A stretch of 64,000 nucleotides of DNA, taken from the NCBI GenBank assembly GCA_027046265.1, contig JALTZF010000040.1, forward strand, positions 2,339 to 66,338, written 5' to 3'. This document shows, piece after piece, positions 3,528 through 38,229 of the stretch. The DNA comes from Pyrodictiaceae archaeon (lineage in GTDB: Archaea; Thermoproteota; Thermoprotei_A; Sulfolobales; Pyrodictiaceae). The notes beneath the pieces are model-generated. The model ran no database searches and was not told the origin of the DNA. It saw only the letters and a program-made list of their open reading frames with translations. Every line of letters starts with the position of its first letter. Position 1 is the stretch's first letter. The position numbers were made by a program, and so were the translations under genes.

Positions 3528-3550
3528 CCCACATTATAGGAGGGAGAACC

Positions 3551-3694: not shown

Positions 3695-3719
3695 GCCTTC
3701 TGCCTTCACTGCAAAATTA

Positions 3720-6406: not shown

Positions 6407-6573
6407 GCTTGTCCCGAAGTATTCTACTCATGCTTGGCCCTTTAGCATGTATTTAGCACAAACTGTACATAGCTACTGGGTAAAATCGTTAATGCTAGGT
6501 GTACTGTCTCCTCCTAATAAAAGTCTTATTTTACCTGGTAAAAGAGGGTATGTTGTGTGGTGAAGACGCAGAG

Positions 6574-7890: not shown

Positions 7891-7982
7891 GTATTATTGT
7901 TTTCGCTTATATTTCTTTATATCTGACTAAAGTCTTTGAACTTAATAGTCGAGCCCTTAATATCCTTCTCAATAATTAAACA

Positions 7983-8741: not shown

Positions 8742-8768
8742 GATAGACTAACCTAGTTTCTTTACGAG

Positions 8769-9914: not shown

Positions 9915-10114
9915 GGCACCCCCAACAGCTCTTCAGCGATAATAGCTTCTCCCATGCCCGGGATAAAAAGTAGTAACTTATAGGAAAGGACTGGGTTAGT
10001 AAGTCGAGTTCTTTACCTATAAGCGTAACTTAAACCACACGAACATTAGCAAAGCACAACAAGTAAGGAGGATACGTTGTTAGAAAGAAAAGAAAGAATG
10101 TATGTTACCTCATT

Positions 10115-11971: not shown

Positions 11972-12041
11972 AATACTACTCAGAATAGTTATGAAGAATA
12001 AAAATGATACTATGTATAGGCCGAAATATGGTAGGAACAGG

Positions 12042-12938: not shown

Positions 12939-13069
12939 AGGACAGCCCTATTACTAGTACTATCACTTATATAGGGTTGCCTGTTTAGTTCTTTTTAGTT
13001 CTTTAACGCCAGTCTCCAAATTGGCTAGTAATTCAACATAGAGTCAAAGCTGGTCTTCAGTAGATTTAT

Positions 13070-13990
13070 CTATGTTCTCTGGGCAATACCCACAGCTTCT
13101 TCAAGGCTTCTAAAGCCATGGCTTTTTAACCATTCTACTAGACCATCAAGCACATCCCTAACAAGGGACCGCCCCTTAACTGCCAGCATACTGCCAGCTT
13201 GTAAAGCTCTTGCCCCTGCCGCAACAAATTCAGCTGCTGTCTTCCAGTCTTGAATCCCGCCAACACCGATAATACAAGGTCTCAACTCTCTGTAGACCTC
13301 ATAGACAACCCTAACAGCTACTGGGTGGATTGGCGGCCCAGATAAGCCACCAACAACATTTGAGAGTACAGGCTTTAGTGTATGTACATCAATGTATGTA
13401 GCCCTAATAGTGTTTATCAATGTTAGACACCTAGCACCAGCCTCGAGGGCCTTCTCAGAGGACTTTACCACATAGTCGCTCAAACCAAGCTTTGCATATA
13501 CCGGCACCTTTACACTGCTAGTAACCGTTCTTACAACATTATATACCATTCTAGGATCAGAACCTATTTCTAGGCCATAACCTTTTGTATGGGGGCAACT
13601 TAAGTTGAGTTCAATCGCTGAAGCTCCATGCTCGTCAGCTACTATGGCTACCTCTCTGAACTCCTCCGGTGTTGTACCACCAGCACTAACTATTACTGGG
13701 AGCCCTAGCGCTTTACCCGCATCAATGAGTTCTGGGAGTGCGTCCTTCCCAGGGTTTGCCAGGCCTACAGCATTGAGAAAGCCTCCTGTGGGGAGTTCTA
13801 TTATGATTGGTGTCTCGTAACCCCTTCTTGGCTGAGGAGTAAAGGTCTTGGTTACAACAGCAGCTAGTCCCCACTCCTTGTATCGCCTCATATGATCCTT
13901 GTCATTGCCTAGTATACCACTTGCATTCATAAGTGGGTGTGAAAGATTAATACCGGGTATCCTCACACTCAAGACGCCTTGTTTAGTCAA
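13070..13990 (-). CDS. pyrD: dihydroorotate dehydrogenase, catalytic subunit (class 1B)
   Basis: LMNASGILG, ELNLSCPHT and GVGGI motifs. There is a 4-nt overlap with pyrC. Confidence 0.85.
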   Translation of the reverse strand: MTKQGVLSVRIPGINLSHPLMNASGILGNDKDHMRRYKEWGLAAVVTKTFTPQPRRGYETPIIIELPTGGFLNAVGLANPGKDALPELIDAGKALGLPVIVSAGGTTPEEFREVAIVADEHGASAIELNLSCPHTKGYGLEIGSDPRMVYNVVRTVTSSVKVPVYAKLGLSDYVVKSSEKALEAGARCLTLINTIRATYIDVHTLKPVLSNVVGGLSGPPIHPVAVRVVYEVYRELRPCIIGVGGIQDWKTAAEFVAAGARALQAGSMLAVKGRSLVRDVLDGLVEWLKSHGFRSLEEAVGIAQRT

Positions 13991-15270
13991 TCTATGCCAT
14001 CACCCGTGAGCCTAGGTTTCATGGGCGCATAACCGTCTGCATACACGAAAAACCCTCTAACAATAGTTGCTATAGGCTCACCCCTGTACTTGAAACCATC
14101 AAACGGTGAATACTTGGCTTTCGAAAAGAATTTGGATGAGTCGATTACACCCTCTCTCTTTAAGTCTACTACTGTGAAGCTTGCTATGCAGCCAGGCTCA
14201 AGGCAACCATACCTAGAGAGGCCAAGTATTCTTCTAGGATTATAGTTTGTTAGCATAACGGCATCCCACAGACTAAGCAAGCCTCTATTGACAAGAGTGT
14301 AGAGGAGCCTTAGTGATACTTCAAGCCCAGGAAACCCTGGTGGGCACTCTTGAAAGCTCTGCTGTTTCTCGGTAATACTGTGTGGAGCATGGTCCGTAGC
14401 CCACGCATCCACCATGCCGGATGCTAGGTGCTTAAGTAGTTTATCTCTCACATTTGGAGGTCTCAGTGGTGGATTGACTTTAGCTATACACCCAAGCCTC
14501 CTCTCGTAGCTGCTGTCAAGTAAGACATAGTGAGGGCATGTGTCAACAGTAAACCCGTGAGCTTTCGCTTTTAGGAGAAGCCTAGAGCTTGTGACGTGTG
14601 TTATGTGAGTCTTTACACTCTTGAAAACATCTAGGAACTCATTAACACACTTCACCTCAGAGAGTACTGGTCTGCAACGACTTCTCTCACCCCGTTGGCA
14701 ATTCTCGCTTATGTATTGTGGATGCTCACAATGTACTATTAATACCTTCTTGTGGTTACGAAGTATACTTACCGCCCTTTCATCAATAAGCTGGAGGTCC
14801 TCTGGGTAGAGCTTTAAGCCTAGGACACGCTTCTCTCTTAGCATACCATCTAGTCCCATAAGATTCCTTGTATACCCTATGTACACGCCATAGTCCACGT
14901 ATGCTTTCTGTCTTAGAGATGCAAGCTTCTCACTCAGGGCCTGCATGTTGTTTATGCGTGGAGAAGTGTTGGGCATATCAACAACAAATGTTATCCCGCC
15001 AGTTGCAGCCGCGAGCGTTCCTGTTTCTTCGTCTTCTTTATAGCTTAGTTTAAGGCCTCTGAGGTGTACATGTATGTCTATTGCTCCCGGTAAGATAACG
15101 CGGTTGCCCTCGATCCTGGCCACTTTGCCTTCCTTGCAAGTATAACCCATGCACGCTTTAGTAATCATGCCGTCACGAATCACTAGAGAAGCCTCAATAA
15201 TAGTTGACCCTATTAGTACTCGTCCCTGAAGAGTGTAGTTTTCAGGGTCAACATCAAATCTTATGCTCAA
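13987..15270 (-). CDS. pyrC: dihydroorotase
   Basis: Amidohydrolase signature AIDIHVHLRG and ATDHAPH. The ORF-track start (15336) overlaps pyrK by 83 nt, so TTG 15270 (LSIRFDVDPE) is the more likely start. Confidence 0.75.
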   Translation of the reverse strand: MSIRFDVDPENYTLQGRVLIGSTIIEASLVIRDGMITKACMGYTCKEGKVARIEGNRVILPGAIDIHVHLRGLKLSYKEDEETGTLAAATGGITFVVDMPNTSPRINNMQALSEKLASLRQKAYVDYGVYIGYTRNLMGLDGMLREKRVLGLKLYPEDLQLIDERAVSILRNHKKVLIVHCEHPQYISENCQRGERSRCRPVLSEVKCVNEFLDVFKSVKTHITHVTSSRLLLKAKAHGFTVDTCPHYVLLDSSYERRLGCIAKVNPPLRPPNVRDKLLKHLASGMVDAWATDHAPHSITEKQQSFQECPPGFPGLEVSLRLLYTLVNRGLLSLWDAVMLTNYNPRRILGLSRYGCLEPGCIASFTVVDLKREGVIDSSKFFSKAKYSPFDGFKYRGEPIATIVRGFFVYADGYAPMKPRLTGDGID

Positions 15271-16036
15271 AGTACGACACCACACTACTATAGCGGAATG
15301 CTGGCCCATCAACACAAAGTAGGAAAGGTGTTCCACGCACTATACATGATCCACACATTCCTATTCCACATCTCACCTCCTCCTCGAGAAGCACTATAGG
15401 GTCTATATTGAGGCCCCGCATTCTCTGAACTAGACTTGTAAGCATTGGTCTAGGGCCAGCAGAAACAACGTCTGATGGTTTGTCTCTTCTTGCCAGCTCA
15501 TAAGCGAGGTCCACTGCTGTTCCACAGAACCCGTATCCACAATCATCTGTTGCGACATACACCTCCACAGCCCTAGGCATTACCCTCTTGAGAAAGCTAT
15601 GAACTTTCTCTGCATCCTGAGAACTAGGTGTACCCCATACAAGCATCACTTGCTTGCCAGACTCGATAAGCTTTTGCGAGGCGAATATCATTGGTGCAAG
15701 CCCTGTGCCTCCGGCTACTAGCATGATTTTATCGCCGCTAACCATGCCAGTAAAACTTCTGCCAAGAGGTGCCTTGACGCCTAACCTGCTGCCCGGGCTT
15801 AACTTGGCGAGTCTCTGTGTACCCTTACCAACTACTTTAAAGAAAATTGAAACAGTATCATTGTTAAGTGTTGCTATGCTCATTGGTATTTCTTTAAGAC
15901 GAGGAAGCCAAATAATCAAGAACTGGCCCGGGCCTGCCTCAATAACATCCTCTATTATCCTCATTTCAAGCCAGTAGTATGTCTGTGAGATTCTCTCAAT
16001 ATGCTCAACAACCGCGGGTCTTGGTACTCCTTTCAA
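15254..16036 (-). CDS. pyrK: dihydroorotate dehydrogenase electron-transfer subunit
   Basis: FAD/NAD-binding fold plus the C-terminal 2Fe-2S motif CGIGMCGSC. Confidence 0.8.
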   Translation of the reverse strand: MKGVPRPAVVEHIERISQTYYWLEMRIIEDVIEAGPGQFLIIWLPRLKEIPMSIATLNNDTVSIFFKVVGKGTQRLAKLSPGSRLGVKAPLGRSFTGMVSGDKIMLVAGGTGLAPMIFASQKLIESGKQVMLVWGTPSSQDAEKVHSFLKRVMPRAVEVYVATDDCGYGFCGTAVDLAYELARRDKPSDVVSAGPRPMLTSLVQRMRGLNIDPIVLLEEEVRCGIGMCGSCIVRGTPFLLCVDGPAFRYSSVVSYFEHKI

Positions 16037-16068
16037 CTTCTACACGCCCATGACAAGGGCTCTTCGCG

Positions 16069-16548
16069 CTATGCCATGAGTAATTTCTCTACCTCATCTT
16101 CTCTGATTATTGTGCCACAATATACGCATTGCAGAACCAGTGGCGACCTTGAAGCTACTTTAAATCTTGAAACCACATGTTCTCTAGGCTTATTCGTTAT
16201 ACATGTTGGATTCGGGCACTTTAGAATACCCACAATATCATCTGGAACTTCTACACGAAGCTTCTTGTGGACAACGTAGTTCCGTATAATGTTTATAGTC
16301 GCTGTAGGGGCTACAAGAGCTATAGCATTAACCTCCTTACTTGAAAGTTCCCGATTCTCAATCTTTATTATATCCTTACGTCCAAGCTTCCTACTCTCCA
16401 CATTCATTAAGACAGCCGTTCTCAGCCCCTCCTTACCAGTTATGCTGAGTATCCTCAACACCGCTAATGCCTTACCTGCAGGTATATGGTCTATTACAGT
16501 GCCATCCCTAATCTTAGAGACAGTTAGGGACGCCTTTTCTGGGCTCAA
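16069..16548 (-). CDS. pyrI: aspartate carbamoyltransferase regulatory subunit
   Basis: [15 protein letters not shown]-domain and a C-terminal Zn motif (CPNPTC...CVYC). It overlaps pyrB by 4 nt. Confidence 0.85.
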
Positions 16549-17468
16549 GGCTTAACACCTACTATGAGAGAGAGTAAGGCCATACGTACAGGGACACCAA
16601 AACGTGCTTGTGTGAAGTATGCAGCATGCCTTGTCGAGTCGACCTCTGGATCTATCTCGTCAACGCGCGGAAGAGGATGGAGGATCTTCATGTGGTCTTT
16701 AGCTTTTTCAAGCAGCTTCAACGTTATACGGTATGACCCTTTTACTCTCTCGTACTCTAGGGGATCTGGAAACCTTTCCTTCTGGACTCGCGTCACATAC
16801 ATCACGTCAATCTCACCTATGACTTCTTCAACGCTTCTCTTCTCCTCGTATTTCACACCCTTCTCCTTGAGAACCCTTACAACTTCAGGGCGTGCTCGTA
16901 GTAGTGGAGGTGATACAAGGTAGACTTTCTCTGGCTCAAACAGTGTTAAACCGTATATGAACGATGAAGCTGCACGCCCATAGCGTAGGTCTCCGACAAC
17001 TGCGTACACCAGTCCGTCCACTTTATTGAATAGTTTCCAGATAGTGAACAAATCCAGCATAGCTTGTGTTGGATGATGCTGTTTCCCGTCACCCGCATTT
17101 ATGACTGGATGCTCTGCTATCTCAGCAGCGTAAAGAGCCGCACCCTCATTCTTGTGTCTCACAACTATCATGTCTGCATAGCCGTCAAGCATTCTTATTG
17201 TGTCAGCAAAAGTCTCACCTTTTGCTAGGCTTGTACCCTCCTCTGACGTGAACCCTATGACTTTTGCTCCTAGAAGCTTTGCTGCTGTCTCAAAGCTTAG
17301 CCTTGTCCTCGTCGAGGGCTCGAAGAATGCTAGAGCCACAACATAGTCTTCTAATAACTTGTAGCTACGCCTATTTGAGGAGAAATAGTCTGCCAGCCCA
17401 AAAAGCTCCTCAAGATCCCCGCGCGTGAAGTCAAGAATCGAGATTACATCTCTACCCCTAAAACCCAC
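16545..17468 (-). CDS. pyrB: aspartate carbamoyltransferase catalytic subunit
   Basis: STRTR and HPTQ motifs plus HPLPR. Confidence 0.9.
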
Positions 17469-17516
17469 GCGCTACCCTGGCATGGTGTAAATGTTGCGAC
17501 AAGGGGTATTTATTAT

Positions 17517-18116
17517 CTACGCAGACGTAGAGCGTATGTACTCTAGTATCCTCCTGGCATCATCAACACTGAGGAATCCCATCCTGGTAGCAACATCTAC
17601 CAGAACACTTACATTCATTAGAGCGTAGAACTTGACCCCCAAGCCTTCAATACGCCTCCTAGCCCCCTGCTCGCGATCAACAACAACAACAGCCGCCACA
17701 GGTTTGGCACCATGTCTTTTCAATGCTTCGATAGCTAATGAGAGACTAGCACCCGTTGTCGCTACATCATCAACAACAACTACAGTCTTACCCTCTAATC
17801 CGCCTTCCACAAGAGACTCTGTGCCATGCTGTTTTCTTGCCAGCCTCACATAGCCCAAAGGCTTACCAGAAAGACAAGCCATGTATGTGGCTAAGGGAAT
17901 CCCAGCTGTTGCAACACCAGCCAGCGCATCATACTCTGTGTCAACTAGCTGTAGGAGCAGGCTAGCCACCATACGCGCTGTTTGTGGGTAAGAATAGAGT
18001 CGTCTAAGATCTATGTAGAAAGGACTTTCAAGGCCAGAAGTTAGCTTGAATGAACCGACCTTAAACATGCCCTCTCTCACTATTACCTCAACAATCTCTG
18101 CTAACTCTAACTGCAT
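17517..18116 (-). CDS. pyrE: orotate phosphoribosyltransferase
   Basis: PRPP-binding motif VVVVDDVATTGAS. It sits in the pyr cluster and overlaps pyrF by 10 nt. Confidence 0.85.
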   Translation of the reverse strand: MQLELAEIVEVIVREGMFKVGSFKLTSGLESPFYIDLRRLYSYPQTARMVASLLLQLVDTEYDALAGVATAGIPLATYMACLSGKPLGYVRLARKQHGTESLVEGGLEGKTVVVVDDVATTGASLSLAIEALKRHGAKPVAAVVVVDREQGARRRIEGLGVKFYALMNVSVLVDVATRMGFLSVDDARRILEYIRSTSA

Positions 18117-18787
18117 AGCCTCATCATCTCCTTCTGCATCTCAAGCACTTCAATAGCTTTCTGGTAAGGGTTCCTTGAGAGCGTTATGAGTCTCCCAACT
18201 ATTTCATAGTCTGCTCCCGCACATAGAGCTTCTCCAGGTGTTGCCCCTTGCACTCCGATGCCTGGAGAAAGTATCCTCATATTTTCTCTAAGGCGCTTAC
18301 GCGCCATTCTTATAAGATCAGTATTTGTTGCTGGAAGTACTATACCCCAAGGCGCTACCTTCAAGGCTATTTCTAATAGATCACCATAAGCCTTCCACAT
18401 GACTTCACTTGCACCCCTATGACTCATCGCGACGACCAATACGAGCTTTACGCCGAGATCATCACACATCTTCTTCAAATCCTCTAGAGCATCCTTATAC
18501 CCCACAAACGCATGAGCTATCACAGCATCAACTCCTGCATCCGCCAAAAGCTTAGCTGAAATAGACATTACATACCCTATATCAGCCAGTTTAAGGTCAG
18601 CAATAAGCATAGCACCTCCCAATCTCTCTGACAGCCTCTCAACACCCTTAATGCCCGCAGAGAGTATGAAGGGTAACCCTATCTTGAAGCCTCTTACAAC
18701 ACCATGAAGAGAGTCAACTATTCCGAGAGCCCATGTTAAGGGGTCACCTAGCCCGACAGGCGGATCAAGCGCCACAATCAGAGTCAA
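18107..18787 (-). CDS. pyrF: orotidine 5'-phosphate decarboxylase
   Basis: LIVALD, ADLKLADIG and VVAMSH motifs of the OMPdecase family. Confidence 0.8.
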   Translation of the reverse strand: MTLIVALDPPVGLGDPLTWALGIVDSLHGVVRGFKIGLPFILSAGIKGVERLSERLGGAMLIADLKLADIGYVMSISAKLLADAGVDAVIAHAFVGYKDALEDLKKMCDDLGVKLVLVVAMSHRGASEVMWKAYGDLLEIALKVAPWGIVLPATNTDLIRMARKRLRENMRILSPGIGVQGATPGEALCAGADYEIVGRLITLSRNPYQKAIEVLEMQKEMMRLCS

Positions 18788-18955
18788 CGCTAACCCTCCA
18801 CTACTTGTTGTTTCTGGCTCTCCTAGTCTAAATAAGAAGCTGAGAGTCTAAGGGCTCGCCCTTAAGCCTGGCCAGCAATCAGGCTCAACACCTACTGCCG
18901 TCTAGCATGAAGCCAGGTACTTAATCCTCCCTGCATTACAAGGTTTTCTGGGTGC

Positions 18956-19906
18956 ATGATAGTGGAAACCACAGAGAAGCTCCTTGACAAGTTGGAGCAG
19001 CTACGGCGGCGACGAAGAGCTGTTATTCTCGCACACAACTACATAATTCCAGAAATCCAGGATATTGCCGACTTTGTTGGTGATAGTCTCGAGCTGGCCA
19101 TCAAGGCTGCTGAGGCTGAAGCCGACGTCATTGTTCTCGTTGGAGTAAACTTCATGGCTGAAGTAGCTAAGCTCCTCAACCCTGACAGGACAGTGTTACA
19201 TCCCGAGCCCCAAGCCGGGTGTCCTCTTGCGAGCTTTGTTACTCCACGAATGCTAAGGAGCGCTAAACAAGAGTACCGTGCACCCGTGCTACTCTACGTT
19301 AACTCTTACGCAGCCACAAAAGCAGAAGCAGACTATGTTGTCACAAGTGCGTCAGCCCTACAGGCAGCCAAGAAGCTTAGTAGAGAGTACGATAGAATAA
19401 TCTTCTCTCCCGATAGAAACCTAGCAGACTGGATACAAGAACAAGTGCCCCACCTCGAAGTCGTGCCCATACCGCGGCATGGCCACTGCCCCGTGCACGA
19501 GTTCCTAGTAAGCAAATACTATGTTATGAAGGCACGTGAGGAACACCCCAACGCCAAGATACTAGTACACCCCGAAGCACCACGCGACGCAAGAAGAATA
19601 GCTGACTACGTAGGCAGCACGAGCCAGATGGTACGCTATATAGGCAAAACAGACCCTAGAGGAGAGTACGTACTTGGCACAGAAGAGGGGCTCGCATATA
19701 GAGCCAAGAAACTGTATCCAGAAGCAAAAGTATACCCTGTTACTCCACGGGCTGTCTGCATAAACATGAAGAAGCTTACTCTAGATAAACTAGTCTGGAG
19801 CCTTGAAACCCTAAAGCCCCAAGTAAGAATACCCAGCGAGATAGCTAAGAAGGCTAGAGAAGCTGTTGAACGTGGCCTAGAGCTGGTAGGCAAGAAACCA
19901 AAGTAG
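18956..19906 (+). CDS. nadA: quinolinate synthase
   Basis: AHNY..PEIQDIADFVGDSL N-terminus, three-domain length, and operon context with nadC. Confidence 0.9.
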   Translation: MIVETTEKLLDKLEQLRRRRRAVILAHNYIIPEIQDIADFVGDSLELAIKAAEAEADVIVLVGVNFMAEVAKLLNPDRTVLHPEPQAGCPLASFVTPRMLRSAKQEYRAPVLLYVNSYAATKAEADYVVTSASALQAAKKLSREYDRIIFSPDRNLADWIQEQVPHLEVVPIPRHGHCPVHEFLVSKYYVMKAREEHPNAKILVHPEAPRDARRIADYVGSTSQMVRYIGKTDPRGEYVLGTEEGLAYRAKKLYPEAKVYPVTPRAVCINMKKLTLDKLVWSLETLKPQVRIPSEIAKKAREAVERGLELVGKKPK

Positions 19907-19946
19907 CGTAGTACTCAGCTCATACACACCCCGAACATATCATCCC

Positions 19947-29098: not shown

Positions 29099-30688
29099 TT
29101 ATACTATTAAAAAGCCTAGTTTGACTAGTTTATCTATTCCTAACCCTAGACATAGTGATGAGTGTCCGTGGACGCTATATATGTATGCTGGCATGGGCTG
29201 GATTATACTGAAATACCTTCCACCACCTTCCTCCATAGTTATTTGGAGAGGTTGTACCTCGAACTCTATGTATAGGTCAACAATGGACTGTAGTGTGCGC
29301 AACAGTTTTTCATCAGTTGGGTTGACCATGAAATACATTGAGAGGGCTTGTCTCCTTTTAGTGAACAACATGAATTCGTACAAGTTTTTCAAAACTCTCT
29401 GTTCTTCTAGTAGCTCAAAGAGCAGCTTCAAATCTTCAATTACGACTACAGACAACCGGTAATCTTCGACGAAGCGCTGCATTCTATACATGAGTTCTTC
29501 AAGTATGAAGGATGCTGGGTTTATGCTGAGTATTGATAGGCGGCTAAGATAGTCTGTTTCAATGCTTTCAGTCTTGATGTTAAGGCCCTTGTAGAGCCCC
29601 CTTATTTTTTGTTTAATTGCTGAAGGACTTGCACGGAATGATACAATGCCTACTTTCAAGTTTTTCTGTGCTAGTAATGCTGCAGCTGCAAATAACTGTG
29701 AAGCTATTTGTGAGTGTCCCCCCGTAGCGTTCTTGAAGACAATGAGTACTTGGTTGCCGCCAAGTATTTCGCCTATACTCTTTCGTAGTATGTACTCATT
29801 TATGTCTCGCTGGGCTGAGCTTATTTCAAACCTCTTGAGGGATGCGCCATCTAGGACGCTTCTACATCTTTCACTGGATAGTAGCTTTAGAATGCCAGCT
29901 TTTGCGAATAGTTGGAATGCTTGCCATAAGTTTATGGTCTTTATTTTTGATGGTTCGGGGAGTTCTGAGGGTTCTTCGGGTAGGTATATTGTGAGTACGG
30001 TCTTTGGCCTTATGTGGAATACTGCTTCTGCAACATTTATTGGGGCCCATCTGAGTTTTCGTACTTCAATAACTCTCCTCAGTTTCCCTTCTTCATGTGT
30101 GAAGCGTAGAATTAGTACTGCATCGACAATGAACTCTTCTACGCCATATCCTATTACTTGGGCGCCATATGGGTGCTCAGCTATTATTATAGATATTACG
30201 CCGAGAGGTTTGAGACCGCTGACAAAGAAGTTTTGCACTATTTCACGGACGCGTGCACGGTTATTTATTATTTGTAGCATTGCGCTGATGCTATCTAATA
30301 CTATCCTATTTATTCTTTTCTCTATGACATTGTCCATTATTTCTTCTAGTTGTTTTATTAATGCTTCCTCATCAACTATGGTTAATGCTTCAACGTAGTG
30401 AAATAATCCTTTTGCCTCTAATTCTCTAAAGTCCATACCTATAGAGGTCATTTGGCTTATAAAGTCTCTGTATGACTGGACAAAGCTTATATACATTGTT
30501 GGGTCGTTGTATCTCTTCATTGCCTCATAGAGTATTTTGGCTGCTATAGTTGTCTTACCTGTTCCAGGGTTTCCGGCTAGGAGAACTATTGCTCCCCGGG
30601 GTATGCCTCCGCCAAGCAGTTTATCTAGAGACTCTATGCCTGTGGGAATGTTTTCGATGCGTATGTTGTCGCTAATAATATCGGCCAT
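29099..30688 (-). CDS. two-domain KaiC/RecA-like ATPase (second domain with degenerate Walker A)
   Basis: Domain 1 has GNPGTGKTT and RIVLDSIS. Domain 2 has KNATGGHSQ in place of a P-loop but keeps VVVIEDL. Confidence 0.8.
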   Translation of the reverse strand: MADIISDNIRIENIPTGIESLDKLLGGGIPRGAIVLLAGNPGTGKTTIAAKILYEAMKRYNDPTMYISFVQSYRDFISQMTSIGMDFRELEAKGLFHYVEALTIVDEEALIKQLEEIMDNVIEKRINRIVLDSISAMLQIINNRARVREIVQNFFVSGLKPLGVISIIIAEHPYGAQVIGYGVEEFIVDAVLILRFTHEEGKLRRVIEVRKLRWAPINVAEAVFHIRPKTVLTIYLPEEPSELPEPSKIKTINLWQAFQLFAKAGILKLLSSERCRSVLDGASLKRFEISSAQRDINEYILRKSIGEILGGNQVLIVFKNATGGHSQIASQLFAAAALLAQKNLKVGIVSFRASPSAIKQKIRGLYKGLNIKTESIETDYLSRLSILSINPASFILEELMYRMQRFVEDYRLSVVVIEDLKLLFELLEEQRVLKNLYEFMLFTKRRQALSMYFMVNPTDEKLLRTLQSIVDLYIEFEVQPLQITMEEGGGRYFSIIQPMPAYIYSVHGHSSLCLGLGIDKLVKLGFLIV

Positions 30689-30813
30689 ACGTGCAAAGCC
30701 CCCAGGCTAGATTTAGGCACTCTGGTACTAGAATATTTATAGTCTCCTAACAGTTCACGTAGCGTTCTATCCAGGATATATTTTCCGGTTAATCTATGTC
30801 GCTTGGGCTCTTC

Positions 30814-31713
30814 TCATTGCCCCATTAGTGGTGCACCTGTAATCATGGGGGAGAGTATGAATGCTATGAGTGTTGTCAACATAAGTATGACAAAGTACTT
30901 AGGTGCAAGTATTGTGTGGCCATGTATTATTCTAGCTATGACGATGGAGGATGCAAAATTTATCATTATGAGAGAGTAGAAGTAGAGTCCTCTTACGAGT
31001 CCCAAGTCTACTCGTAGTCCCCCGACTCCGGGGAGTTTGAGTTCCAGCATGTAGTAGAGGAGTCCTAGCATTACGCCAGCTGATACTGCGAATGTTATCG
31101 ATGCAAGCATGACTATGAATACATACTCGCTAAGTCGATTACGTGTTATTCTTATTAGTCTTCTTATTTCGCGTGAGTGAGCAGTTGTAGCTGATAGTAC
31201 TAGGTGGGGGTTTCCTCCGCTACGGGCTGCTGTGACTATGCTTTTTAGGAATATTCTTACTCTTCTCGGCGTGTTTTTTGTTGCACGGTCAAACGCTTCT
31301 TGGAGGTTTCCTGTGCTCTTGTAGGCGTAGGCTAAGTGTTTTAGTCTACTTGCTAGTGGTTCTTCTATTAGTTCTGAAGCAACGGTTAAGGCTTCATATG
31401 TCGACCTGGTTGATGATATTATGCTGGCAAATGCTGCCAGGAAATCTGTTACTTGTTCTTCTAGGGACTCAACGAGTTTTACACGTTTCCTGGCATAGAT
31501 GGAGAGAGGTATCATGGATATTGTTATAGCTGTCGAGATGTTAATTATTGAGCCCAGGTCTGTTATTACTGGAATGAATATTGAGCGTTTTATCTCGTAT
31601 CTTGCCGTGAGCCCTGGGTCTATTATGCCGATAATAGTGTTATACACATAGAGAGACCATAGTAAGAATAGTAATAGTGCTATTATGCACGATGCTATAG
31701 CCCACTTGTCCAC
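30814..31713 (-). CDS. T2SSF/TadC-like pilus-assembly membrane protein
   Basis: An N-terminal helix, a cytoplasmic helical domain, then three C-terminal helices. It is adjacent to a second copy and to the ATPase. Confidence 0.6.
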   Translation of the reverse strand: MDKWAIASCIIALLLFLLWSLYVYNTIIGIIDPGLTARYEIKRSIFIPVITDLGSIINISTAITISMIPLSIYARKRVKLVESLEEQVTDFLAAFASIISSTRSTYEALTVASELIEEPLASRLKHLAYAYKSTGNLQEAFDRATKNTPRRVRIFLKSIVTAARSGGNPHLVLSATTAHSREIRRLIRITRNRLSEYVFIVMLASITFAVSAGVMLGLLYYMLELKLPGVGGLRVDLGLVRGLYFYSLIMINFASSIVIARIIHGHTILAPKYFVILMLTTLIAFILSPMITGAPLMGQ

Positions 31714-31744
31714 GGTGAAGCATCACCTTTGCATGAGCTTTCTC

Positions 31745-32635
31745 TCAGACTCTTACCTTTGAAATTATTGAGTCGGATAGGATTATGACGAGAGCTGAGA
31801 CTATGGGTGTGAGTATGAATGTTGCGAGGAACAGTATAGAGTTAAAGTTTAGCCAGCTCGGTAGTGGCCGGCCTAGGGGGAATAATAGTAGTAACCCTAC
31901 AACGCCAACGACTACAGGCAACATAACGCTTAGTGAAACGTAGAACTCGAGTAGTGCTGCTAGACTGGATGTTACACGATCTATCTCGGTTTCGACTGCA
32001 AATAAGAAGTCGCGGAGTAGTGTCTCAACTATTTCTGTCATACCGCTTCCTGCTCTAGAGGCGACAGCTAGTGATGAGAAGAGTCTTCTTAGTGTGGGGC
32101 TTGGCGTTATGTAGGCTACTCTTTCAAGTGCTTCATGTACGTCTACGCCAGACTTCACCATAGAGCTTAAGTATTCAATCTCTATTTTGAACCATGGGAG
32201 GTCATGTGCATCTCTTTCAGCCATGTCGAGGATAGCATATGCTAGTGTGGCTCCAGATAGTAGGCGTGAGAGTAGGGCGGAGGCAAATAATGGGAATCGT
32301 GGTTCTAGTGTTGACCCTCTGTTCTTGTAGAATGTGCCTGGTAATGATATTGCTAGTGCGAGTCCGAAAGTAAACATGGATATGCCAGCTAATATGCTGG
32401 AAACTACTGAGATGTGAATACCGTATTCCCTAAAGAAGAGTGCTATGAGAGAAGATGCGAGAGCTGTTATTATGATGAGTAGCGCGAGTACAGTTGAAGC
32501 ATACCGGTATATGCTCTTTGATAATCCTGAACCTAGTACTTGGTATTCGATGAGGGGGTTTAGCCGTGTTAGTAAGTTCACAAACTTCTCAACTATGCTT
32601 TCTATAGAGCTGCGGAGACCCATACAAAACTGCAC
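31745..32635 (-). CDS. T2SSF/TadB-like pilus-assembly membrane protein
   Basis: Same architecture as the neighbouring T2SSF gene. It abuts the ATPase gene with a 1-nt gap. Confidence 0.6.
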   Translation of the reverse strand: MQFCMGLRSSIESIVEKFVNLLTRLNPLIEYQVLGSGLSKSIYRYASTVLALLIIITALASSLIALFFREYGIHISVVSSILAGISMFTFGLALAISLPGTFYKNRGSTLEPRFPLFASALLSRLLSGATLAYAILDMAERDAHDLPWFKIEIEYLSSMVKSGVDVHEALERVAYITPSPTLRRLFSSLAVASRAGSGMTEIVETLLRDFLFAVETEIDRVTSSLAALLEFYVSLSVMLPVVVGVVGLLLLFPLGRPLPSWLNFNSILFLATFILTPIVSALVIILSDSIISKVRV

Positions 32636-32636
32636 C

Positions 32637-34220
32637 TCATTCTGTTGAGAACTTGTATGGTTCTACTCCCTCTGCGAGGGCTTCTTCGTAGACTGCTTCC
32701 GGGTCTCTGAGATACCTCCTCATAACCTCGTGGAGTTCGAGTGTATCCATGTTCTTCTCTGCAGCCCACTTGAGCACCGTAGCCCTCATCTCAAGGTCCT
32801 TCCAGACGTCAGAAGGCCTTACTGCAGCGAGTTCTGCAACAATTTTTACGAAGGCAGCCTCTCTTGTGCCTAGGAAGCTCCAGGAGTCACTGTCTCTTCT
32901 CCACCTGTACAATCTATTGAAGACTATGGTGTCACGCTCAAGATTATAGCCTATAACCTCATCTACTCTTGTGACACGTCGTAGAACCCTGCCCTTATGT
33001 TCTATGCGCAGAATATTGACGAAGAGTTTAGCTGAGGCTATTAGGCTCTTCGGGACATTCATTGGTGGTGATGCAAGCCTATTTATTAGCACTTCTGCGC
33101 TTTCAGCATGCACGGTAGTCACGCCGCCATGACCTGTTGCTATTGCCTGGAAGAAGGCAAAGGCTTCCCTGCTACGTATCTCTCCGACAATAATGACGTC
33201 AGGCCTCATACGTAGAGCACTCTCTACAAGTGCTTGTAGCGTGACATTTTGTACGCCAGGAGAGTCGCTGAGCCTCGTGTATAGGGCTGACCAGTTCTCG
33301 TGGAATGGAAGGTAGATCTCAGGAGTGTCCTCGACACTTACAACTTTGTATTCTGGTGGTAATAGCATTGTTATAGCGTTTAATAATGTCGTCTTGCCAC
33401 TACCTGTTGGGCCATATATGATTATACCCTGCTTATATTGAAGTGCAGCCCAGAGAAACGCGGCAATTCCAGGCTCTATAGTCCTATTACGTAGGAGTTC
33501 AACGACAGTAAATGGTTCGGCACGGAATTTCCTAATAGTAAAGCTGTGCCCACGGCGTGATACCACATCGAGGATCAAGTGTACACGGTAGCCCTCAGGC
33601 TTTAGCACTCCTTCGACAATAGGCCTAGCAAGGCTTGGCTCTTGACCAGAGCGTATGGCAAGCTTCATAACTATACTTTCAAGTTCGCTAGGGTCATCAA
33701 ATATTATCTCAGTGGTTAGCCACTCAAACTTTGAATGATAGACGAACAGTGGGTTATAGAGCCCGTTACAAGTTATATCTTCAATGTAGGGGTCGCGTAT
33801 TAATGGGTCAATACGCCCATAGCCAACCATGTCTCTAGCAACATGATAGGCTACGGCAAGTGCAACCTCCTCTGGAGATCTCCCTTCACGCTTTATAGGC
33901 CCAGCAAGTATTTTAGCCCAGAAAGAAGCAAGCTTGTAAGCCTCGGAAAGGCCTCTAGCAAAGTCTCCTAGTTCGGCGAAACGGTGAAGAGTATCCATAT
34001 CACGCATTATACGCGCTACAACACGCTTTCTGATAATCTCGCCAGTCTTCCCGAGCTCAGGCTCTACAACCCTGTAGAAGCGGCGCCCAAACTCGTCCTC
34101 AAAAATCTGTGCAACAACTCTAGGCTCCTCTAACAACGAATACTCATCAAGAACCTTAGCTGCACCACTCTCTACACTATTAGCCTCCGTCTCTCTGGAA
34201 TTACTCATTACTTTTAGCAC
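32637..34220 (-). CDS. type II/IV secretion-family ATPase (FlaI/PilB/VirB11-like)
   Basis: Walker A YGPTGSGKTT, VEDTPEI, IIVGEIR and GHGGVTTVHA motifs. Confidence 0.9.
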   Translation of the reverse strand: MLKVMSNSRETEANSVESGAAKVLDEYSLLEEPRVVAQIFEDEFGRRFYRVVEPELGKTGEIIRKRVVARIMRDMDTLHRFAELGDFARGLSEAYKLASFWAKILAGPIKREGRSPEEVALAVAYHVARDMVGYGRIDPLIRDPYIEDITCNGLYNPLFVYHSKFEWLTTEIIFDDPSELESIVMKLAIRSGQEPSLARPIVEGVLKPEGYRVHLILDVVSRRGHSFTIRKFRAEPFTVVELLRNRTIEPGIAAFLWAALQYKQGIIIYGPTGSGKTTLLNAITMLLPPEYKVVSVEDTPEIYLPFHENWSALYTRLSDSPGVQNVTLQALVESALRMRPDVIIVGEIRSREAFAFFQAIATGHGGVTTVHAESAEVLINRLASPPMNVPKSLIASAKLFVNILRIEHKGRVLRRVTRVDEVIGYNLERDTIVFNRLYRWRRDSDSWSFLGTREAAFVKIVAELAAVRPSDVWKDLEMRATVLKWAAEKNMDTLELHEVMRRYLRDPEAVYEEALAEGVEPYKFSTE

Positions 34221-34465
34221 CTACACCAGAGTAGAGGAGACCCCTTCACTTGTTATAACATTACTATGAGGTGAGTAGCCAATAATGTTTTCTTTGAGTG
34301 TAAACACTATAAATTATTGGAATTTAAACACCTTAACAATATTAGATGAGAGCACTATAATAAAGCATAGCTATATGAGGTTATTGGATTGTCCAGGCTT
34401 TGGCTATACAAAAACAAAATAGCATGGTTTTGGAGATACACCATGCCACTAAGCAATTAAAGAGG

Positions 34466-34921
34466 TTATTGTCGTACTATTAGTGTGTAGGTTGCCTCAA
34501 CACCATTGATTGTCGTCACTTTGACTGTGTAGATACCTGGGCTGAGAGGGCCAACGCCTAGCTTTGACAGATTTATCAATGCCTGCTTAACCTCGCCAAC
34601 TGGTATGTTGATGTTGCTTAGGGTAGTATTGGCAGCCACTACTGAGCCTGCAGCGTCTAAGAGGAAGGCACCGCTAATATTGACGGGTATTTCTCCTATG
34701 TTGCGTACGAATATTGTGACAGTGATATTGTTTGGATCTGTATTATTGTATCTTACTGCATCAATCTTTATTCTCTCGTACAATGCTTCTTGTCCTGTAG
34801 TCTGGCTTGATGCTGCTCCACTAACCCAGAGGTAGAGAATGGCTGCTGTAGCTATAGCTATGAGTACGAGTAAGGCGGTAGCCACAACCGGGGATATACC
34901 ACGGATGACGTGTCTAGCCAT
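34466..34921 (-). CDS. archaeal type IV pilin-like protein (class III signal peptide)
   Basis: N-terminus MARHVIRGISPVVATALLVLIAIATAAILYLWV is a prepilin-peptidase-type signal (RG/ISPV) followed by a hydrophobic helix. Confidence 0.75.
   Translation of the reverse strand: MARHVIRGISPVVATALLVLIAIATAAILYLWVSGAASSQTTGQEALYERIKIDAVRYNNTDPNNITVTIFVRNIGEIPVNISGAFLLDAAGSVVAANTTLSNINIPVGEVKQALINLSKLGVGPLSPGIYTVKVTTINGVEATYTLIVRQ
34802..34867. repeat. 66-bp segment identical to 35234-35299 (pilin N-terminal helix coding)
   Basis: ctggcttgatgctgctccactaacccagaggtagagaatggctgctgtagctatagctatgagtac is present in both pilin genes. Confidence 0.85.
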
Positions 34922-34933
34922 GCCACCTTCACC

Positions 34934-35344
34934 TCAGCGTACTACTAGTGTGTAGGTTGCCTCAACACCATTTTCAGTTACAACTTTTACTGTATAGATG
35001 CCTGGATCCAGTGTCGCACTCACTTGTACTTGTATTATATCGCCTGGGTTCAGGCTTTGACTTAATGTAGTGTCTTGTGCTACTGTTCCAGTTGCATTTA
35101 TTACGTATGCAGCAGATATGGTTACAGGTGTCTCGCCAATATTATGCACATATATAATCACGCGGTTATTTGTGTCATCATACTGTACGGCATCTATTTT
35201 TATTCTCTCGTAAAGTACTTCTTCGCCGCCTAGCTGGCTTGATGCTGCTCCACTAACCCAGAGGTAGAGAATGGCTGCTGTAGCTATAGCTATGAGTACT
35301 AGGAGTGCTGTTGCTACAACGGGTGAGATTCCGCGTATGTGCAT
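34934..35344 (-). CDS. archaeal type IV pilin-like protein, tandem paralog
   Basis: MHIRGISPVVATALLVLIAIATAAILYLWV. The N-terminal helix is identical to the neighbouring gene. Confidence 0.75.
   Translation of the reverse strand: MHIRGISPVVATALLVLIAIATAAILYLWVSGAASSQLGGEEVLYERIKIDAVQYDDTNNRVIIYVHNIGETPVTISAAYVINATGTVAQDTTLSQSLNPGDIIQVQVSATLDPGIYTVKVVTENGVEATYTLVVR
35234..35299. repeat. 66-bp segment identical to 34802-34867
   Basis: Second copy of the repeat at 34802-34867. Confidence 0.85.
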
Positions 35345-35503
35345 GCTATTCTCACCCGTGACGGAGAGGTTTTACGTACATTGTGGATTATGTTACTCAT
35401 GTTAATATTGTCTGGGATCATACTTATAAAATTTATCCCGATAAACTTCCTTTTAAAAAATTGTTCATGGGTTTAAAACGTCTTACTAGTGGGTTAAGCA
35501 GTG

Positions 35504-35776
35504 TCATATTTCTATTAGTACTAACTCAACTTCTTTACATGCTGTCATTATGCTTGTTTCTTTAATTATGTTAGCTATATCCACAGCGCGGGTCTTATGG
35601 TTGTGTATTTTTAGTATGCAAGTATCACGGTAAACGTGTAGTGTAATTATTATCTTATTGTTCTTCATTACTAGCATGCTTGTAGAGTGTCGTGCAACAT
35701 AGTATCCCATACGTGCTAGGTGTGCGTGCAGCTGTTCGGTTAAGCGTAGGGGGTCAGAATAGGTTTGTTTATGCAT
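35504..35776 (-). CDS. hypothetical protein (90 aa)
   Basis: ORF only. Confidence 0.3.
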   Translation of the reverse strand: MHKQTYSDPLRLTEQLHAHLARMGYYVARHSTSMLVMKNNKIIITLHVYRDTCILKIHNHKTRAVDIANIIKETSIMTACKEVELVLIEI

Positions 35777-35908
35777 TACTGTTGCGCCCTTGGCTAAGTG
35801 TTCTAGGATGATCTTTCTGCCTTTGATAGTTATTCTAAAAATGTTTCTCTAATATATTAGCTTTGGGTGATTATTCACACTCATAATTTAGTTTAGAGTT
35901 TGGATATG

Positions 35909-36631
35909 TTAATGAGCGTGTTCCTTGTTTGTTTTCTTTAGAATGAAGCGGGCGTCTACTATTAGGGCTTTGTCTGGGTAGCTCATGACTGGGTTTAAGT
36001 CCATTTCGCTTATCTCGGGGTTTTCTACAAGTATCTTTTGCGCTTTCATTATTATGTATATTAGGCTCTTTATGTCTCTTGGTGGCATGTTTCTATAGCC
36101 TTTAAGCATTTTGTATGCTTTTACTTCTCTTATCATGTCTTCTGCGTCTTGTTCTGTGAATGGTGCTACTCTGAAGCTTACATCCTTGAATAGCTCGACG
36201 AATATTCCTCCGAGACCGAACATTATTGTTGGGCCGAAGACGGGGTCGCGTATTCCTCCGATGACTACTTCTATAGCATCCTTTGGGGCCATGGCTTGTA
36301 CTAGTATGCCTTCAATTTGCGCATTTGGCATGTGTTTCTTTGTGTTCTCTATTATCTGGTTAAAGGCCTTCTTGACTTCCTCGGGGGTGTTTAGCCCCAC
36401 TACAACTCCTCCAACGTCGCTCTTGTGTATTATTTGTGGACTAACTATCTTTAACACTACTGGGTATCCTATTTTTTCAGCTATGCTGACTGCCTCCTCG
36501 GCGTCTCTTGCCAGTCCATAGCCTGGTATTGGGGCGCTATACGACTCTAGGAGCTGCATAGCTTCATGCTCTAATAGTTTGTTCCTGCCAGAAGCTAATG
36601 CCCGGTCTATGATTTCACGTGGTGAAACCAT
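35909..36631 (-). CDS. ADP-forming acetyl-CoA synthetase beta subunit (ATP-grasp)
   Basis: LLEHEAMQLLESY...GYPVVLKIVSPQIIHKSDVGGVVVGL is typical of the ACD beta/ATP-grasp_5 family. No alpha subunit is adjacent. Confidence 0.7.
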   Translation of the reverse strand: MVSPREIIDRALASGRNKLLEHEAMQLLESYSAPIPGYGLARDAEEAVSIAEKIGYPVVLKIVSPQIIHKSDVGGVVVGLNTPEEVKKAFNQIIENTKKHMPNAQIEGILVQAMAPKDAIEVVIGGIRDPVFGPTIMFGLGGIFVELFKDVSFRVAPFTEQDAEDMIREVKAYKMLKGYRNMPPRDIKSLIYIIMKAQKILVENPEISEMDLNPVMSYPDKALIVDARFILKKTNKEHAH

Positions 36632-36833
36632 ACTCGTACACCCTCATTCCCTTTGCGACTATTGTGTTCAACCATTTTAGAATTGGTATCTAGTCAAGAA
36701 TAATAAGTTCTCCCTGAATAAATAACTATACAATCGGGGAGTTTTGCTCTAAGGCTGTGGAGCTTGTCCTGGCCTTGTGTATCTTTGTAGTGTTGGCCTA
36801 TAGCTCGCCTAATTAGCACGATGCACAATATTA

Positions 36834-37604
36834 TTGGGTACTGGCAGGTGGCTGAGGGTGATTGTTTCCAGGACAGCTATAGTCTTGGCTGCGGGTGAAG
36901 GCAGAAGACTAGGTGGACGAAAGATCTTTGTTAAGGTGCGAGGTAGGCCGCTGATATGGTATCCCTTAACTGTTCTTCACTTAATTGGTGTTAGTGAGTT
37001 CTTTATAGTTACAAGGCGAGAGTATATTAGTGATTTATCGCGTGTAGTGTCTAGTATTGCTGGTTCTAATTCATTTGATATCATTGTAAATGAGGAGGTT
37101 TGGAGAGAGAATGGTCATAGCCTAGTACTAGGCTTGAAGAGGCTTGGGCCTCGTCATGCTATTGTGTCTATGAGTGACCATGTGTACTCACCAGTTATAC
37201 CATTGAGGGTTGCTGCGGGATATCGTGGCTGGGAGGTCTATAGTGTTGGTTGTGATGCTGCCCCAGGCTACGTAGACGTTGATGAGGCCACAAAGATTTC
37301 TGCTACGCCACCACTACTGCACAGTGTTGGAAAGGGGCTAGAGTCCTGGCTCTGTATAGACGTGGGAGTCCACGCTGTTCATGATGCACGGTACATGGCT
37401 AATGAAGCTCTTTTTGCGTATAAGAGAGGAGTGCTTAGGTTGAATACTCTTGTAAGGCATGTTGCCTCGAAGAAGGTTGTGCGCGTTGAAATCTTTAAGG
37501 GTATTCCTTGGACCGAGATCGATACTCCCCGGGACTTAGAGGAAGCAGAAAAGGGTGTTAGGAGGGGTGTTATAGACCATGTCATCAGCTGGACCAGAAG
37601 GTAG
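36834..37604 (+). CDS. nucleotidyltransferase, probable CTP:inositol-1-phosphate cytidylyltransferase (IPCT)
   Basis: AIVLAAGEGRRLGG signature. It overlaps the CDP-alcohol phosphatidyltransferase gene by 26 nt. Confidence 0.55.
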   Translation: MGTGRWLRVIVSRTAIVLAAGEGRRLGGRKIFVKVRGRPLIWYPLTVLHLIGVSEFFIVTRREYISDLSRVVSSIAGSNSFDIIVNEEVWRENGHSLVLGLKRLGPRHAIVSMSDHVYSPVIPLRVAAGYRGWEVYSVGCDAAPGYVDVDEATKISATPPLLHSVGKGLESWLCIDVGVHAVHDARYMANEALFAYKRGVLRLNTLVRHVASKKVVRVEIFKGIPWTEIDTPRDLEEAEKGVRRGVIDHVISWTRR

Positions 37605-38229
37605 AGCAGAGCTTGTAAAGCCTACTGATGGCGTTGTGTCGAGGCTAGTTAACCGGCGCATATCGACAAGGATAAGCTTATTTATAGTGAGGTATGCCTC
37701 TCCAAGTCCTGACCTTGTAAGCGTTATAGCTGCTTCTCTCGTCGCGCTAGGAGGGGCTTTGTTTGCATCTGGCAGGCTTCTATTAGGAGGTGTTGTCGCA
37801 CAGCTAGGCTCGATTATTGATGGTGTTGATGGGGAGATTGCAAGGTTGACCGGGAAACAAAGCAGAGCAGGCGGTTTCTTTGACACAATGCTTGACAGAT
37901 TGGCTGATGTAGCGTTAATACTTGGCGTAGGCATGGCTGCAATGTATTCTCTTCATCCTCAAACTGCGCTTGCCTTAGCAGTGCTTGCAGTGAGTGCTGA
38001 TCTACTTGTGTCGTACCTGCATGCAGTAGGAGAGAAGGTCTCTAGTAGACATCCAGCACTTGTAGGTAGGATACCGAATATTGCAGGTCGTGATACCAGA
38101 ATCTTCATTCTATTCCTGGCCGGAGTCACTGGAGCCGTTTGGCAAGGACTACTAGTAATGACCGCTTTATCGTACTTCTATGTTGTAGTTAAGAGCATAG
38201 AGATCCTAAGATACCTAGAGTCAAAGTAG
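37579..38229 (+). CDS. CDP-alcohol phosphatidyltransferase, probable di-myo-inositol-phosphate phosphate synthase (DIPPS)
   Basis: DGVDGEIARLTGKQSRAGGFFDTMLDRLAD matches D-G-x2-A-R-x8-G-x3-D-x3-D. It has about 6 helices and is coupled to the IPCT-like gene. Confidence 0.65.
   Translation: MSSAGPEGRAELVKPTDGVVSRLVNRRISTRISLFIVRYASPSPDLVSVIAASLVALGGALFASGRLLLGGVVAQLGSIIDGVDGEIARLTGKQSRAGGFFDTMLDRLADVALILGVGMAAMYSLHPQTALALAVLAVSADLLVSYLHAVGEKVSSRHPALVGRIPNIAGRDTRIFILFLAGVTGAVWQGLLVMTALSYFYVVVKSIEILRYLESK

Follow-up and report, generated by a model that had tools for sequence, protein, structure and literature searches.

What could make a short stretch of archaeal chromosome so asymmetric between its two strands? 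The question is raised by a 64-kb stretch of DNA (hereafter the window, meaning the whole stretch that was analysed) from an uncultured member of the Pyrodictiaceae, hyperthermophilic Crenarchaeota. In it, the synonymous sites of a ~20-kb domain (17.4-37.5 kb) are hyper-skewed along ~5.7 kb to the left and 14.4 kb to the right of one sign switch. A preliminary description of this DNA, based on codons read by eye, had proposed a strand-specific mutational signature shared by neighbouring genes of opposite orientation and arranged as a patchwork of alternating blocks. We measured the asymmetry as the third-codon-position keto skew, (G+T-A-C)/N, projected on the + strand. The window was compared with sister-lineage loci (L083, L099 and L001, the last being Pyrodictium sp. 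isolate DIMAG01), with more distant relatives (L085, L086, L088, L089 from P. occultum, L093 and L096) and, for the skew background, with 584 genes in 84 other loci, related and unrelated. An assembly artefact was rejected, since independent assemblies carry the same sequence (found again at 99.4-100% identity in Logan SRR10312489, NCBI GCA_027058035.1 and ENA REYS20-1) and two sister lineages show the same pattern.

A two-armed domain in unskewed surroundings

Outside the domain the skew is nil. Across ~54 kb of flanks, including 10 kb past the right end of the window, third-position keto skew is 0.00 +/- 0.08, and all 30 genes of at least 150 aa lying outside 17.4-37.7 kb stay within +/-0.2 (sd 0.079). 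Inside, the absolute skew is at least 0.35 in 8 of the 18 domain genes, against 7 of the 584 background genes. Bernoulli segmentation of the third positions, which on shuffled data returned nothing beyond the minimum imposed by the search, gave a segment without skew at 608-17394 (+0.01), a negative one at 17397-23655 (-0.23) and a strongly positive one at 23658-27191 (+0.55), followed by 27194-29480 (+0.06), 29483-32697 (+0.46), 32700-34592 (-0.01) and 34595-37529 (+0.37), with the skew lost again from 37532 to 63593 (-0.01). Change-points are thus retained under formal segmentation, but what they delimit is one domain with two arms, a single switch and three low-skew patches, not a series of alternating blocks. 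The left arm (17397-23189), running from pyrE to the aldo/keto reductase gene (AKR) and on through the left half of a non-coding spacer, is A/C-rich at synonymous sites of the + strand, with a mean of -0.23; the right arm (23190-37530), from the formamidase gene to IPCT, is T/G-rich. The patches are AKR, 27.2-29.5 kb and 32.7-34.6 kb, and only small cores of them are weakly negative (-0.15 to -0.31), so the A/C-rich blocks that had been placed at 28.15-28.9 and 33.4-34.3 kb are unskewed patches and no true reversals. Two boundaries had also been located inside intact genes, and both genes do contain a moderately significant change-point by permutation: the HTH_10 regulator at 28067 (p=0.004) and the secretion ATPase (p=0.004) at 33810, not at 33400. 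Further internal change-points of moderate significance were found in the aspartate dehydrogenase gene (aspDH) at 21018 and in hemA at 26822 (permutation p 0.002-0.004; 0.004 for hemA), and the gradient suspected in nadA near 19150 corresponds to a weak change-point at 19246 (p=0.07).

The sign of the skew depends on the arm in which a gene lies. All 16 clearly skewed genes bear the sign of their own arm whatever their orientation, as had been claimed for opposite-orientation neighbours. In the left arm, the keto skew on the + strand is -0.21 in pyrE and -0.24 in pyrF, both encoded on the - strand, and -0.20 in nadA, -0.19 in nadC, -0.50 in aspDH and -0.05 in AKR (21669-22700), all encoded on the + strand. 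In the right arm it is positive in the - strand genes for formamidase (23652-24953; +0.63), hemA (+0.45), the KaiC-like protein (+0.38), the two T2SSF proteins (+0.48 and +0.45), three small pilin-like ORFs (+0.30 to +0.34) and ACD-beta (+0.44), and equally in the + strand genes for flavin reductase (25231-26049; +0.44) and IPCT (IPCT/DIPPS; +0.30). Read along the coding strand, 12 of the skewed genes are A/C-rich and four are T/G-rich, sorted by strand and arm; pyrE and pyrF on the left, and flavin reductase and IPCT on the right, show the independence from orientation. Pfam agrees with the gene names given in the preliminary description (formamidase, flavin reductase, hemA, KaiC-like, the two T2SSF genes, the T2SSE ATPase, ACD-beta, IPCT/DIPPS, nadA/C, aspDH and pyrE/F), and the base counts reported there for three 60-nt stretches are exact.

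The bias resides at silent sites, and codon positions 1 and 2 are regionally flat apart from slight leakage. The skews of G over C and of T over A at third positions (GC3 skew, 0.3-0.5; AT3 skew, 0.4-0.74) have the same keto sign. The asymmetry at fourfold-degenerate sites, which had been suggested as a measure, stands at -0.50 for the A/C-ending genes and +0.27 for the T/G-ending ones, against -0.03 outside the domain. At twofold sites, the T fraction of pyrimidines is 0.27, 0.69 and 0.55 in these three classes, and the G fraction of purines 0.39, 0.68 and 0.49. All synonymous families are shifted, and the picture is unchanged with an index corrected for amino-acid composition and for GC3 bias. 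These two factors account for most of the keto3 scatter in GC-rich relatives, but neither for the pattern in the window nor for the ATPase offset described below. Along the right arm the distance gradient is weak, from ~0.63 down to 0.30 across 14 kb, and the ends are abrupt.

Strand-following substitution in three lineages

We consider it very probable that the skew is mutational, follows the strand, arose in situ and is still being produced. Substitutions were polarised with three taxa, namely the window, L083 and L099 (the last 88.7% identical to the window and 91.9% to L083), over the left arm and the adjacent control. From pyrE to AKR, third positions changed toward A/C on the + strand at 183 of 1552 G/T sites, and toward G/T at 182 of 2571 A/C sites, which gives a rate ratio toward A/C of 1.67 (p=4e-7) and an implied equilibrium of -0.25, compared with the observed -0.23. 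In pyrI+pyrB, directly outside the domain, the ratio is 1.07 (p=0.75). In pyrF, on the - strand, the ratio toward A/C on the + strand is 3.3 (p=2e-6); in AKR, on the + strand, it is 2.4 (p=6e-4), which corresponds to an equilibrium of -0.41, and the movement is seen in all three lineages. Since genes on opposite strands both move toward A/C on the + strand, the process follows the strand and not the gene. In the right arm, the formamidase gene of the window is more keto-rich than that of L083 at 34 sites and less so at 7. A strand-specific bias of transition type is active within the 20-kb domain, and the flanks are spared.

The formamidase gene offers a second line of evidence. Its homologues (19-27, at 57-80% identity) have a keto3 of 0.00 +/- 0.09, against -0.63 for the window gene, so an artefact of the gene family was rejected. 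The window gene is also A/C-shifted at codon positions 1 and 2, by 1.5 and 2.6 sd. A metagenome scan with formamidase returned only distant homologues, in other contexts. The mutational reading of the preliminary description, which had set a strand-specific signature against codon selection, is thus borne out by the joint shift of the synonymous families, by the unskewed formamidase homologues and by polarised substitutions that are asymmetric inside the domain and symmetric just outside it.

The low-skew patches appear to have different histories. AKR arrived recently and is now taking on the skew of the left arm: it is as yet unskewed, it is not found at the same position in the more distant relatives L086 and L085, and it is gaining skew, as expected of such a newcomer. 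The patch at 27194-29480 (+0.06) covers the 5' end of hemA, the HTH_10 regulator (+ strand), a 106-aa ORF (- strand, 28554-28874) and the 3' end of the KaiC-like gene; it is syntenic in L088 and L093 and is thus not an insertion, it has no conserved offset, and it may be a recombination tract of ~2.3 kb. The patch at 32700-34592 (-0.01) lies over the - strand gene for the T2SSE-type secretion/pilus ATPase. In five genomes of 45-66% GC (window, 32637-34220; L088, 10001-11653; L093, 10001-11641; L096, 10001-11620; P. occultum L089, 10001-11575), synonymous sites of this gene carry more G and T on the coding strand than do those of the neighbouring genes of the operon. The offset amounts to ~+0.2 to +0.5 by composition-controlled indices and is strongest at the 5' end. 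Here a gene-following bias cancels the regional skew. DUF445 and HepT genes in the relatives show a similar T/G excess on their coding strands, and for all of these the cause is probably a transcription-associated asymmetry; the sign in the ATPase gene is that expected from deamination of the non-template strand during transcription.

The spacer at the sign switch and the source of the asymmetry

The only true sign switch of the domain lies at ~23.10-23.20 kb, inside a non-coding spacer of 951 bp (22701-23651) that separates the convergent 3' ends of AKR and formamidase and is unusually long for such a position. Its left half has a keto skew of -0.26 (p=5e-8) and its right half one of +0.22 (p=2e-6); in 100-nt steps the values are -0.46, -0.24, -0.20, -0.30, +0.06, +0.20, +0.30, +0.20, +0.14 and +0.29. 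Three degenerate direct repeats of ~110-146 bp each (22815-23196, + strand) end at the switch. They have in common the blocks AAACAGAAATA, TAGCTAGCYCA and TAACGTAATACTC, their mean column identity is 73%, and they are candidate protein-binding iterons; between lineages the conserved blocks have 4 substitutions compared with 9 expected, which is only suggestive. The most A+T-rich stretch of the spacer (23220-23369) lies directly right of the switch and a second one at 22890-23009; both have a GC content of 25-33% and are candidates for unwinding elements. The spacer is 91% identical in L083 and L099, and its divergence between lineages is slower than that of neighbouring third positions, so it is under some constraint and not neutral. 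No Rfam family matched within it, and a known RNA was rejected on that ground; a large palindrome behind the mirror-image halves was likewise rejected, the inverted matches being short and scattered. Three copies of the motif CCAGTACA, set 20-24 nt apart, stand at its very start (22725-22775; Tandem Repeats Finder period 12, 3.2 copies), and the related motifs CAGTACAG and CTGTACAG are found deeper in the spacer.

How could such a site organise the substitutions on either side of it? The signature is that one strand gains T from C and G from A. When DNA is single-stranded, hydrolytic deamination converts C to U, which is read as T, and A to hypoxanthine, which is read as G, and this chemistry would explain the signature. 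To the right of ~23.15 kb it is the + strand that gains T/G, and to the left the - strand; on both sides the affected strand has its 5' end at the switch, which makes it the lagging-strand template, or the displaced strand, of synthesis moving outward. Resection of a double-strand break as the source of single-stranded DNA was rejected, because it leaves the strand 3'-ended at the break, whereas here the 5' ends are at the switch. The spacer, with its three direct repeats and A+T-rich stretches, would then be a site-specific, bidirectional start of DNA synthesis, either a replication origin or an origin-like element, and it may have been acquired with the lineage-specific insert that holds AKR, formamidase and flavin reductase. 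The locality of the effect could be explained, speculatively, if single-strand exposure is prolonged only near the start site, for example if, in cells that are not growing, at ~100 C, forks stalled or idled over the first ~6-15 kb, or if strand-displacement synthesis had a limited reach. Our tentative explanation of the domain is that DNA synthesis sets out in both directions from an origin-like site and that the strand it exposes is deaminated; we would put the chances of this at slightly under even. We rate as possible, and on the unlikely side, that the domain is a site-anchored mutagenic regime of ~20 kb, in which a non-canonical start, with neither a linked initiator gene nor an origin recognition box (ORB), keeps one strand single-stranded long enough at ~100 C, and only within a few kb, to give a mitochondrion-like C>T/A>G asymmetry. 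Such a regime, if real, would amount to a replication or strand-displacement intermediate of a new, local kind, or to an origin captured recently and served by forks of short range.

The polarity of the domain, amino-rich on the left and keto-rich on the right, makes the switch a local maximum of the amino-keto (MK) disparity, and experimentally mapped Sulfolobus origins show MK disparity maxima (PMC3000693). An initiator gene beside an archaeal origin is common and not obligatory (PMC3000693). In Aeropyrum pernix, which belongs to the same order as the Pyrodictiaceae, stationary-phase cells keep and enlarge the origin-centred marker-frequency peaks, and the early-S population is elevated (PMC10769869), which makes long-lived origin-proximal replication intermediates plausible in this order. 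Speculatively, such intermediates at ~100 C might restrict the damage to a few kb.

A number of observations weigh against an origin-like start. No Orc1/Cdc6 or WhiP gene was found in the window (Pfam, 50 largest ORFs) or in the 10 kb past its right end, whereas the two origins of Aeropyrum depend on Orc1-1 and WhiP. The canonical ORB, in the one consensus searched for (TCCAGTGGAAAC), has no match in the spacer. Among the domain genes, 15 of 21 point toward the switch and would be head-on to departing forks. To the left of 17.4 kb and to the right of 37.5 kb there is no skew, the 10 kb past the window included, and the effect is not replichore-wide; a normal origin should skew its whole replichore, and not 6 + 15 kb with fairly abrupt ends. 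The polarity of third-position skew is not universal at archaeal origins and is inverted at ori3 of Haloferax volcanii (PMC12999951). In the left half of the spacer the ongoing bias is absent (polarised ratio 0.8), the neutral-looking short intergenic spacers of the right arm are skewed far less than its genes (pooled +0.08), and the left-arm genes are heterogeneous in their substitution asymmetry (p=0.02), with aspDH decaying from -0.5. Third-position divergence is 0.09-0.32 inside the domain and 0.08-0.32 outside; it is not elevated, and a raised mutation rate in the domain was rejected for this reason.

Comparison with relatives bears on whether the domain was assembled from elsewhere. The order of the right-arm genes is kept in L088, L093, L096 and P. 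occultum L089, and that of the nad cluster in L086; in none of these five syntenic relatives (L086, L088, L089, L093 and L096) is the regional skew present. On the left the domain ends within the pyr cluster, between pyrB and pyrE, and on the right it ends in IPCT-DIPPS, whose adjacency to a CBS-domain gene is conserved in L093. No att-like repeats were found at the domain ends, which share no 12-mers, and no integrase or tRNA was found in the domain, whose genes are housekeeping genes syntenic with those of relatives; an integrated element or horizontally acquired island was rejected on these grounds and on the position of the boundaries inside conserved clusters. AKR, the spacer, formamidase and flavin reductase are lineage-specific and stand between two ancestral syntenic blocks. 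Divergence between the lineages is mosaic, with a third-position d3 of 0.08-0.32. The identity to the sister lineage L001, ~92% on the left (92% at the DNA level over window 17390-25051), falls to 77% on the right at ~25.1 kb. At this step L001 11627-13127 faces window 25051-25219, the sister carrying an extra 1.3-1.5 kb whose ORFs have the skew sign of the right arm; the step marks the edge of a recombination tract, or else the lineage of the window has lost DNA here. The proteins of pyrE-pyrF (17517-18787) are 85% identical to those of the sister lineage, compared with 98% for the neighbours pyrB and nadA, and this divergent tract begins exactly at the left edge of the skew domain. In L001 10001-10786, hemA is present only from residue 169 on and is followed by unrelated, unskewed DNA, a break that may be an assembly join and not a true rearrangement and that leaves L001 with no right arm for comparison.

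It could be supposed that blocks skewed elsewhere were joined by rearrangement, horizontal transfer or recombination, the switch being the junction and the patches later imports. Such a relic would fit the mosaic divergence, the identity step at ~25.1 kb with its 1.3-kb indel, the divergent pyrE-pyrF proteins, the lineage-specific genes between ancestral blocks, the intragenic change-points and the present loss of skew in aspDH and the spacer. However, the ~54 kb of flanks are unskewed and the outer boundaries lie within conserved clusters; the lineage-specific formamidase gene is the most skewed of all, though its homologues have no skew; and the switch falls within a spacer of mirror-image composition and not at its edge. 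A relic is also disfavoured in that the whole left arm is at equilibrium with an ongoing asymmetric process beside a symmetric control, and in that the newcomer AKR is gaining skew in all three lineages; we would give a relic or mosaic little credence. Of the three causes suggested in the preliminary description, repeated rearrangement in a strongly skewed genome does not agree with the unskewed flanks or with boundaries inside conserved clusters, and the outer edges, which lie at pyrB|pyrE and IPCT-DIPPS/CBS, are not rearrangement or transfer junctions when related genomes are compared. Recombination tracts are present in the region, as the mosaic divergence and the drop from 92% to 77% attest, and are no more than a possible cause of the two patches other than that over the ATPase; a local process fits best. 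Selection on synonymous codons, for translation or mRNA properties across co-regulated genes, would account for a third-position skew that exceeds that of the short intergenic spacers and for the resistance of Lys AAG to the shift. It seems extremely improbable all the same, since which endings are preferred depends on the orientation of a gene and on its side of the switch, the shift is common to all codon families, the non-coding spacer halves have the sign of their own arm and orthologues in syntenic relatives lack the bias.

Two further mechanisms share the geometry of the domain. Long-range divergent transcription or R-loop formation could start in the spacer, with one non-coding or antisense transcript running rightward and one leftward. 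It would expose the non-template strand (+ on the right, - on the left) to deamination with the polarity of an origin, and R-loops could in addition prime DNA synthesis; from the sequence by itself this mechanism and an origin are indistinguishable. Transcripts would naturally set a limit to the length of the domain, the A+T-rich stretches of the spacer are TATA-like, and gene-specific keto bias of coding strands clearly exists, in the ATPase of five genomes and in DUF445 and HepT of the relatives. Yet transcripts of 6 and 15 kb would be needed, antisense to most genes and dominating the genes' own transcription, from a spacer that sits between two convergent 3' ends, matches no RNA family and is only weakly skewed in its halves; moreover, highly expressed genes of the flanks, such as that for S-adenosylmethionine synthetase, have no coding-strand bias. 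We regard this mechanism as unlikely, if deserving of some weight. A point of fork convergence (termination), or a fork barrier, with a mutational polarity inverted relative to bacteria, would make the 15 of 21 genes that point toward the switch co-directional with the forks. Inverted third-position polarity is documented at H. volcanii ori3 (PMC12999951), and 'inversed' asymmetries have been reported in many archaea (PMC3269017). Site-specific termination is not known in archaea (PMC3269017), yet the switch is sharp to ~100 bp; mapped crenarchaeal origins have the polarity found here, a terminus should show the opposite sign if the lagging-strand template is deaminated, and the problem of locality remains. 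Fork convergence is accordingly improbable in our estimate.

Known asymmetries, neighbouring genes and significance

The archaeal strand asymmetries described so far are usually weak, messy and genome-scale, and origins in uncultured hyperthermophiles are hard to locate. The domain resembles replication-associated asymmetry (chirochores with a G+T-rich leading strand) in following the strand, in being centred on synonymous sites with GC and TA skews of the same keto sign, and in its one sharp, intergenic sign switch with the polarity of Sulfolobus origins (PMC3000693). It differs in being limited to ~5.7 + 14.4 kb amid unskewed surroundings and not spanning a replichore, in having no initiator gene nearby and in that most of its genes would be head-on. 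Its amplitude is at or above that of the strongest bacterial replichore skews.

Chemically, the domain resembles vertebrate mitochondrial DNA, whose heavy/light-strand asymmetry is attributed to strand-displacement replication, the displaced strand being deaminated according to the time it spends single-stranded. That system shares with the domain C>T and A>G changes on one strand, which leave one strand keto-rich and the other amino-rich, a very large amplitude at fourfold sites and a fixed start point; unlike it, the domain is on a cellular chromosome and has two arms, a weak distance gradient and abrupt ends. At mammalian origins ('N-domains') the skew reflects the local direction of forks and weakens with distance from the origin. 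The sharp upward jump of T/G skew at the initiation site, strongest nearby, is similar, but the domain described here has a scale of kb and not Mb, its skew falls to zero without reversing toward a neighbouring origin and its amplitude is tens of times larger. With transcription-associated asymmetry, the deamination of non-template cytosines, only the gene-specific offset of the ATPase type is comparable. The skew of the domain does not follow coding strands, most of which are A/C-rich, and four genes of opposite orientation mirror the bias. In the literature we found genome-scale analyses of archaeal skew, but no description of a kb-scale, site-anchored domain of very high amplitude.

A cultured relative may have a weaker counterpart. 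In the Pyrolobus fumarii locus L085 (CP002838.1, 237691-258476), keto3 on the + strand is ~-0.03 left of ~9.5 kb and ~+0.16 right of it, for genes on both strands; the shift lies near the aspartate dehydrogenase gene and may be a weak boundary of strand-following skew. The lineage of the window has a GC content of 44-50% (GC3 ~0.4), compared with 58-66% (GC3 0.7-0.9) in the syntenic relatives L088, L089, L093 and L096, and among the substitutions between the three close lineages transitions outnumber transversions ~10:1, both of which point to a strong GC-to-AT shift in this lineage. A gene of the uracil-DNA glycosylase family (PF03167) lies just past the right end of the window, at 11738-12421 of L097, a locus that overlaps by ~140 bp with the end of a Lon-like gene (window 61800-63593), and is relevant to how the organism handles cytosine deamination. 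Two genes of the domain have a second family member in the unskewed flanks: the orotidine monophosphate decarboxylase family is found at 18107-18787 and 46842-47549, and phosphoribosyltransferases at 17517-18116 and 57464-58141. The KaiC-like ATPase, two TadC/T2SSF-like membrane proteins, the T2SSE ATPase and the small pilin-like ORFs form a type IV pilus-like cluster (29099-35776) that is syntenic across the Pyrodictiaceae, with a Pilin_N match in the P. occultum locus.

Few asymmetries known to us are as strong, yet this one is limited to 20 kb, still operating and anchored on a 951-bp element. The locus also separates a regional, strand-following bias from the gene-following bias of the ATPase gene, which is a warning for skew-based prediction of origins and for analyses of codon usage. 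If the element is not a canonical origin, the domain points to an undescribed local source of single-stranded DNA. If it is an initiation site, it would provide a handle, from sequence alone, on where and how DNA synthesis starts in the Pyrodictiaceae, and would tell for what length of time DNA remains single-stranded at close to 100 C.

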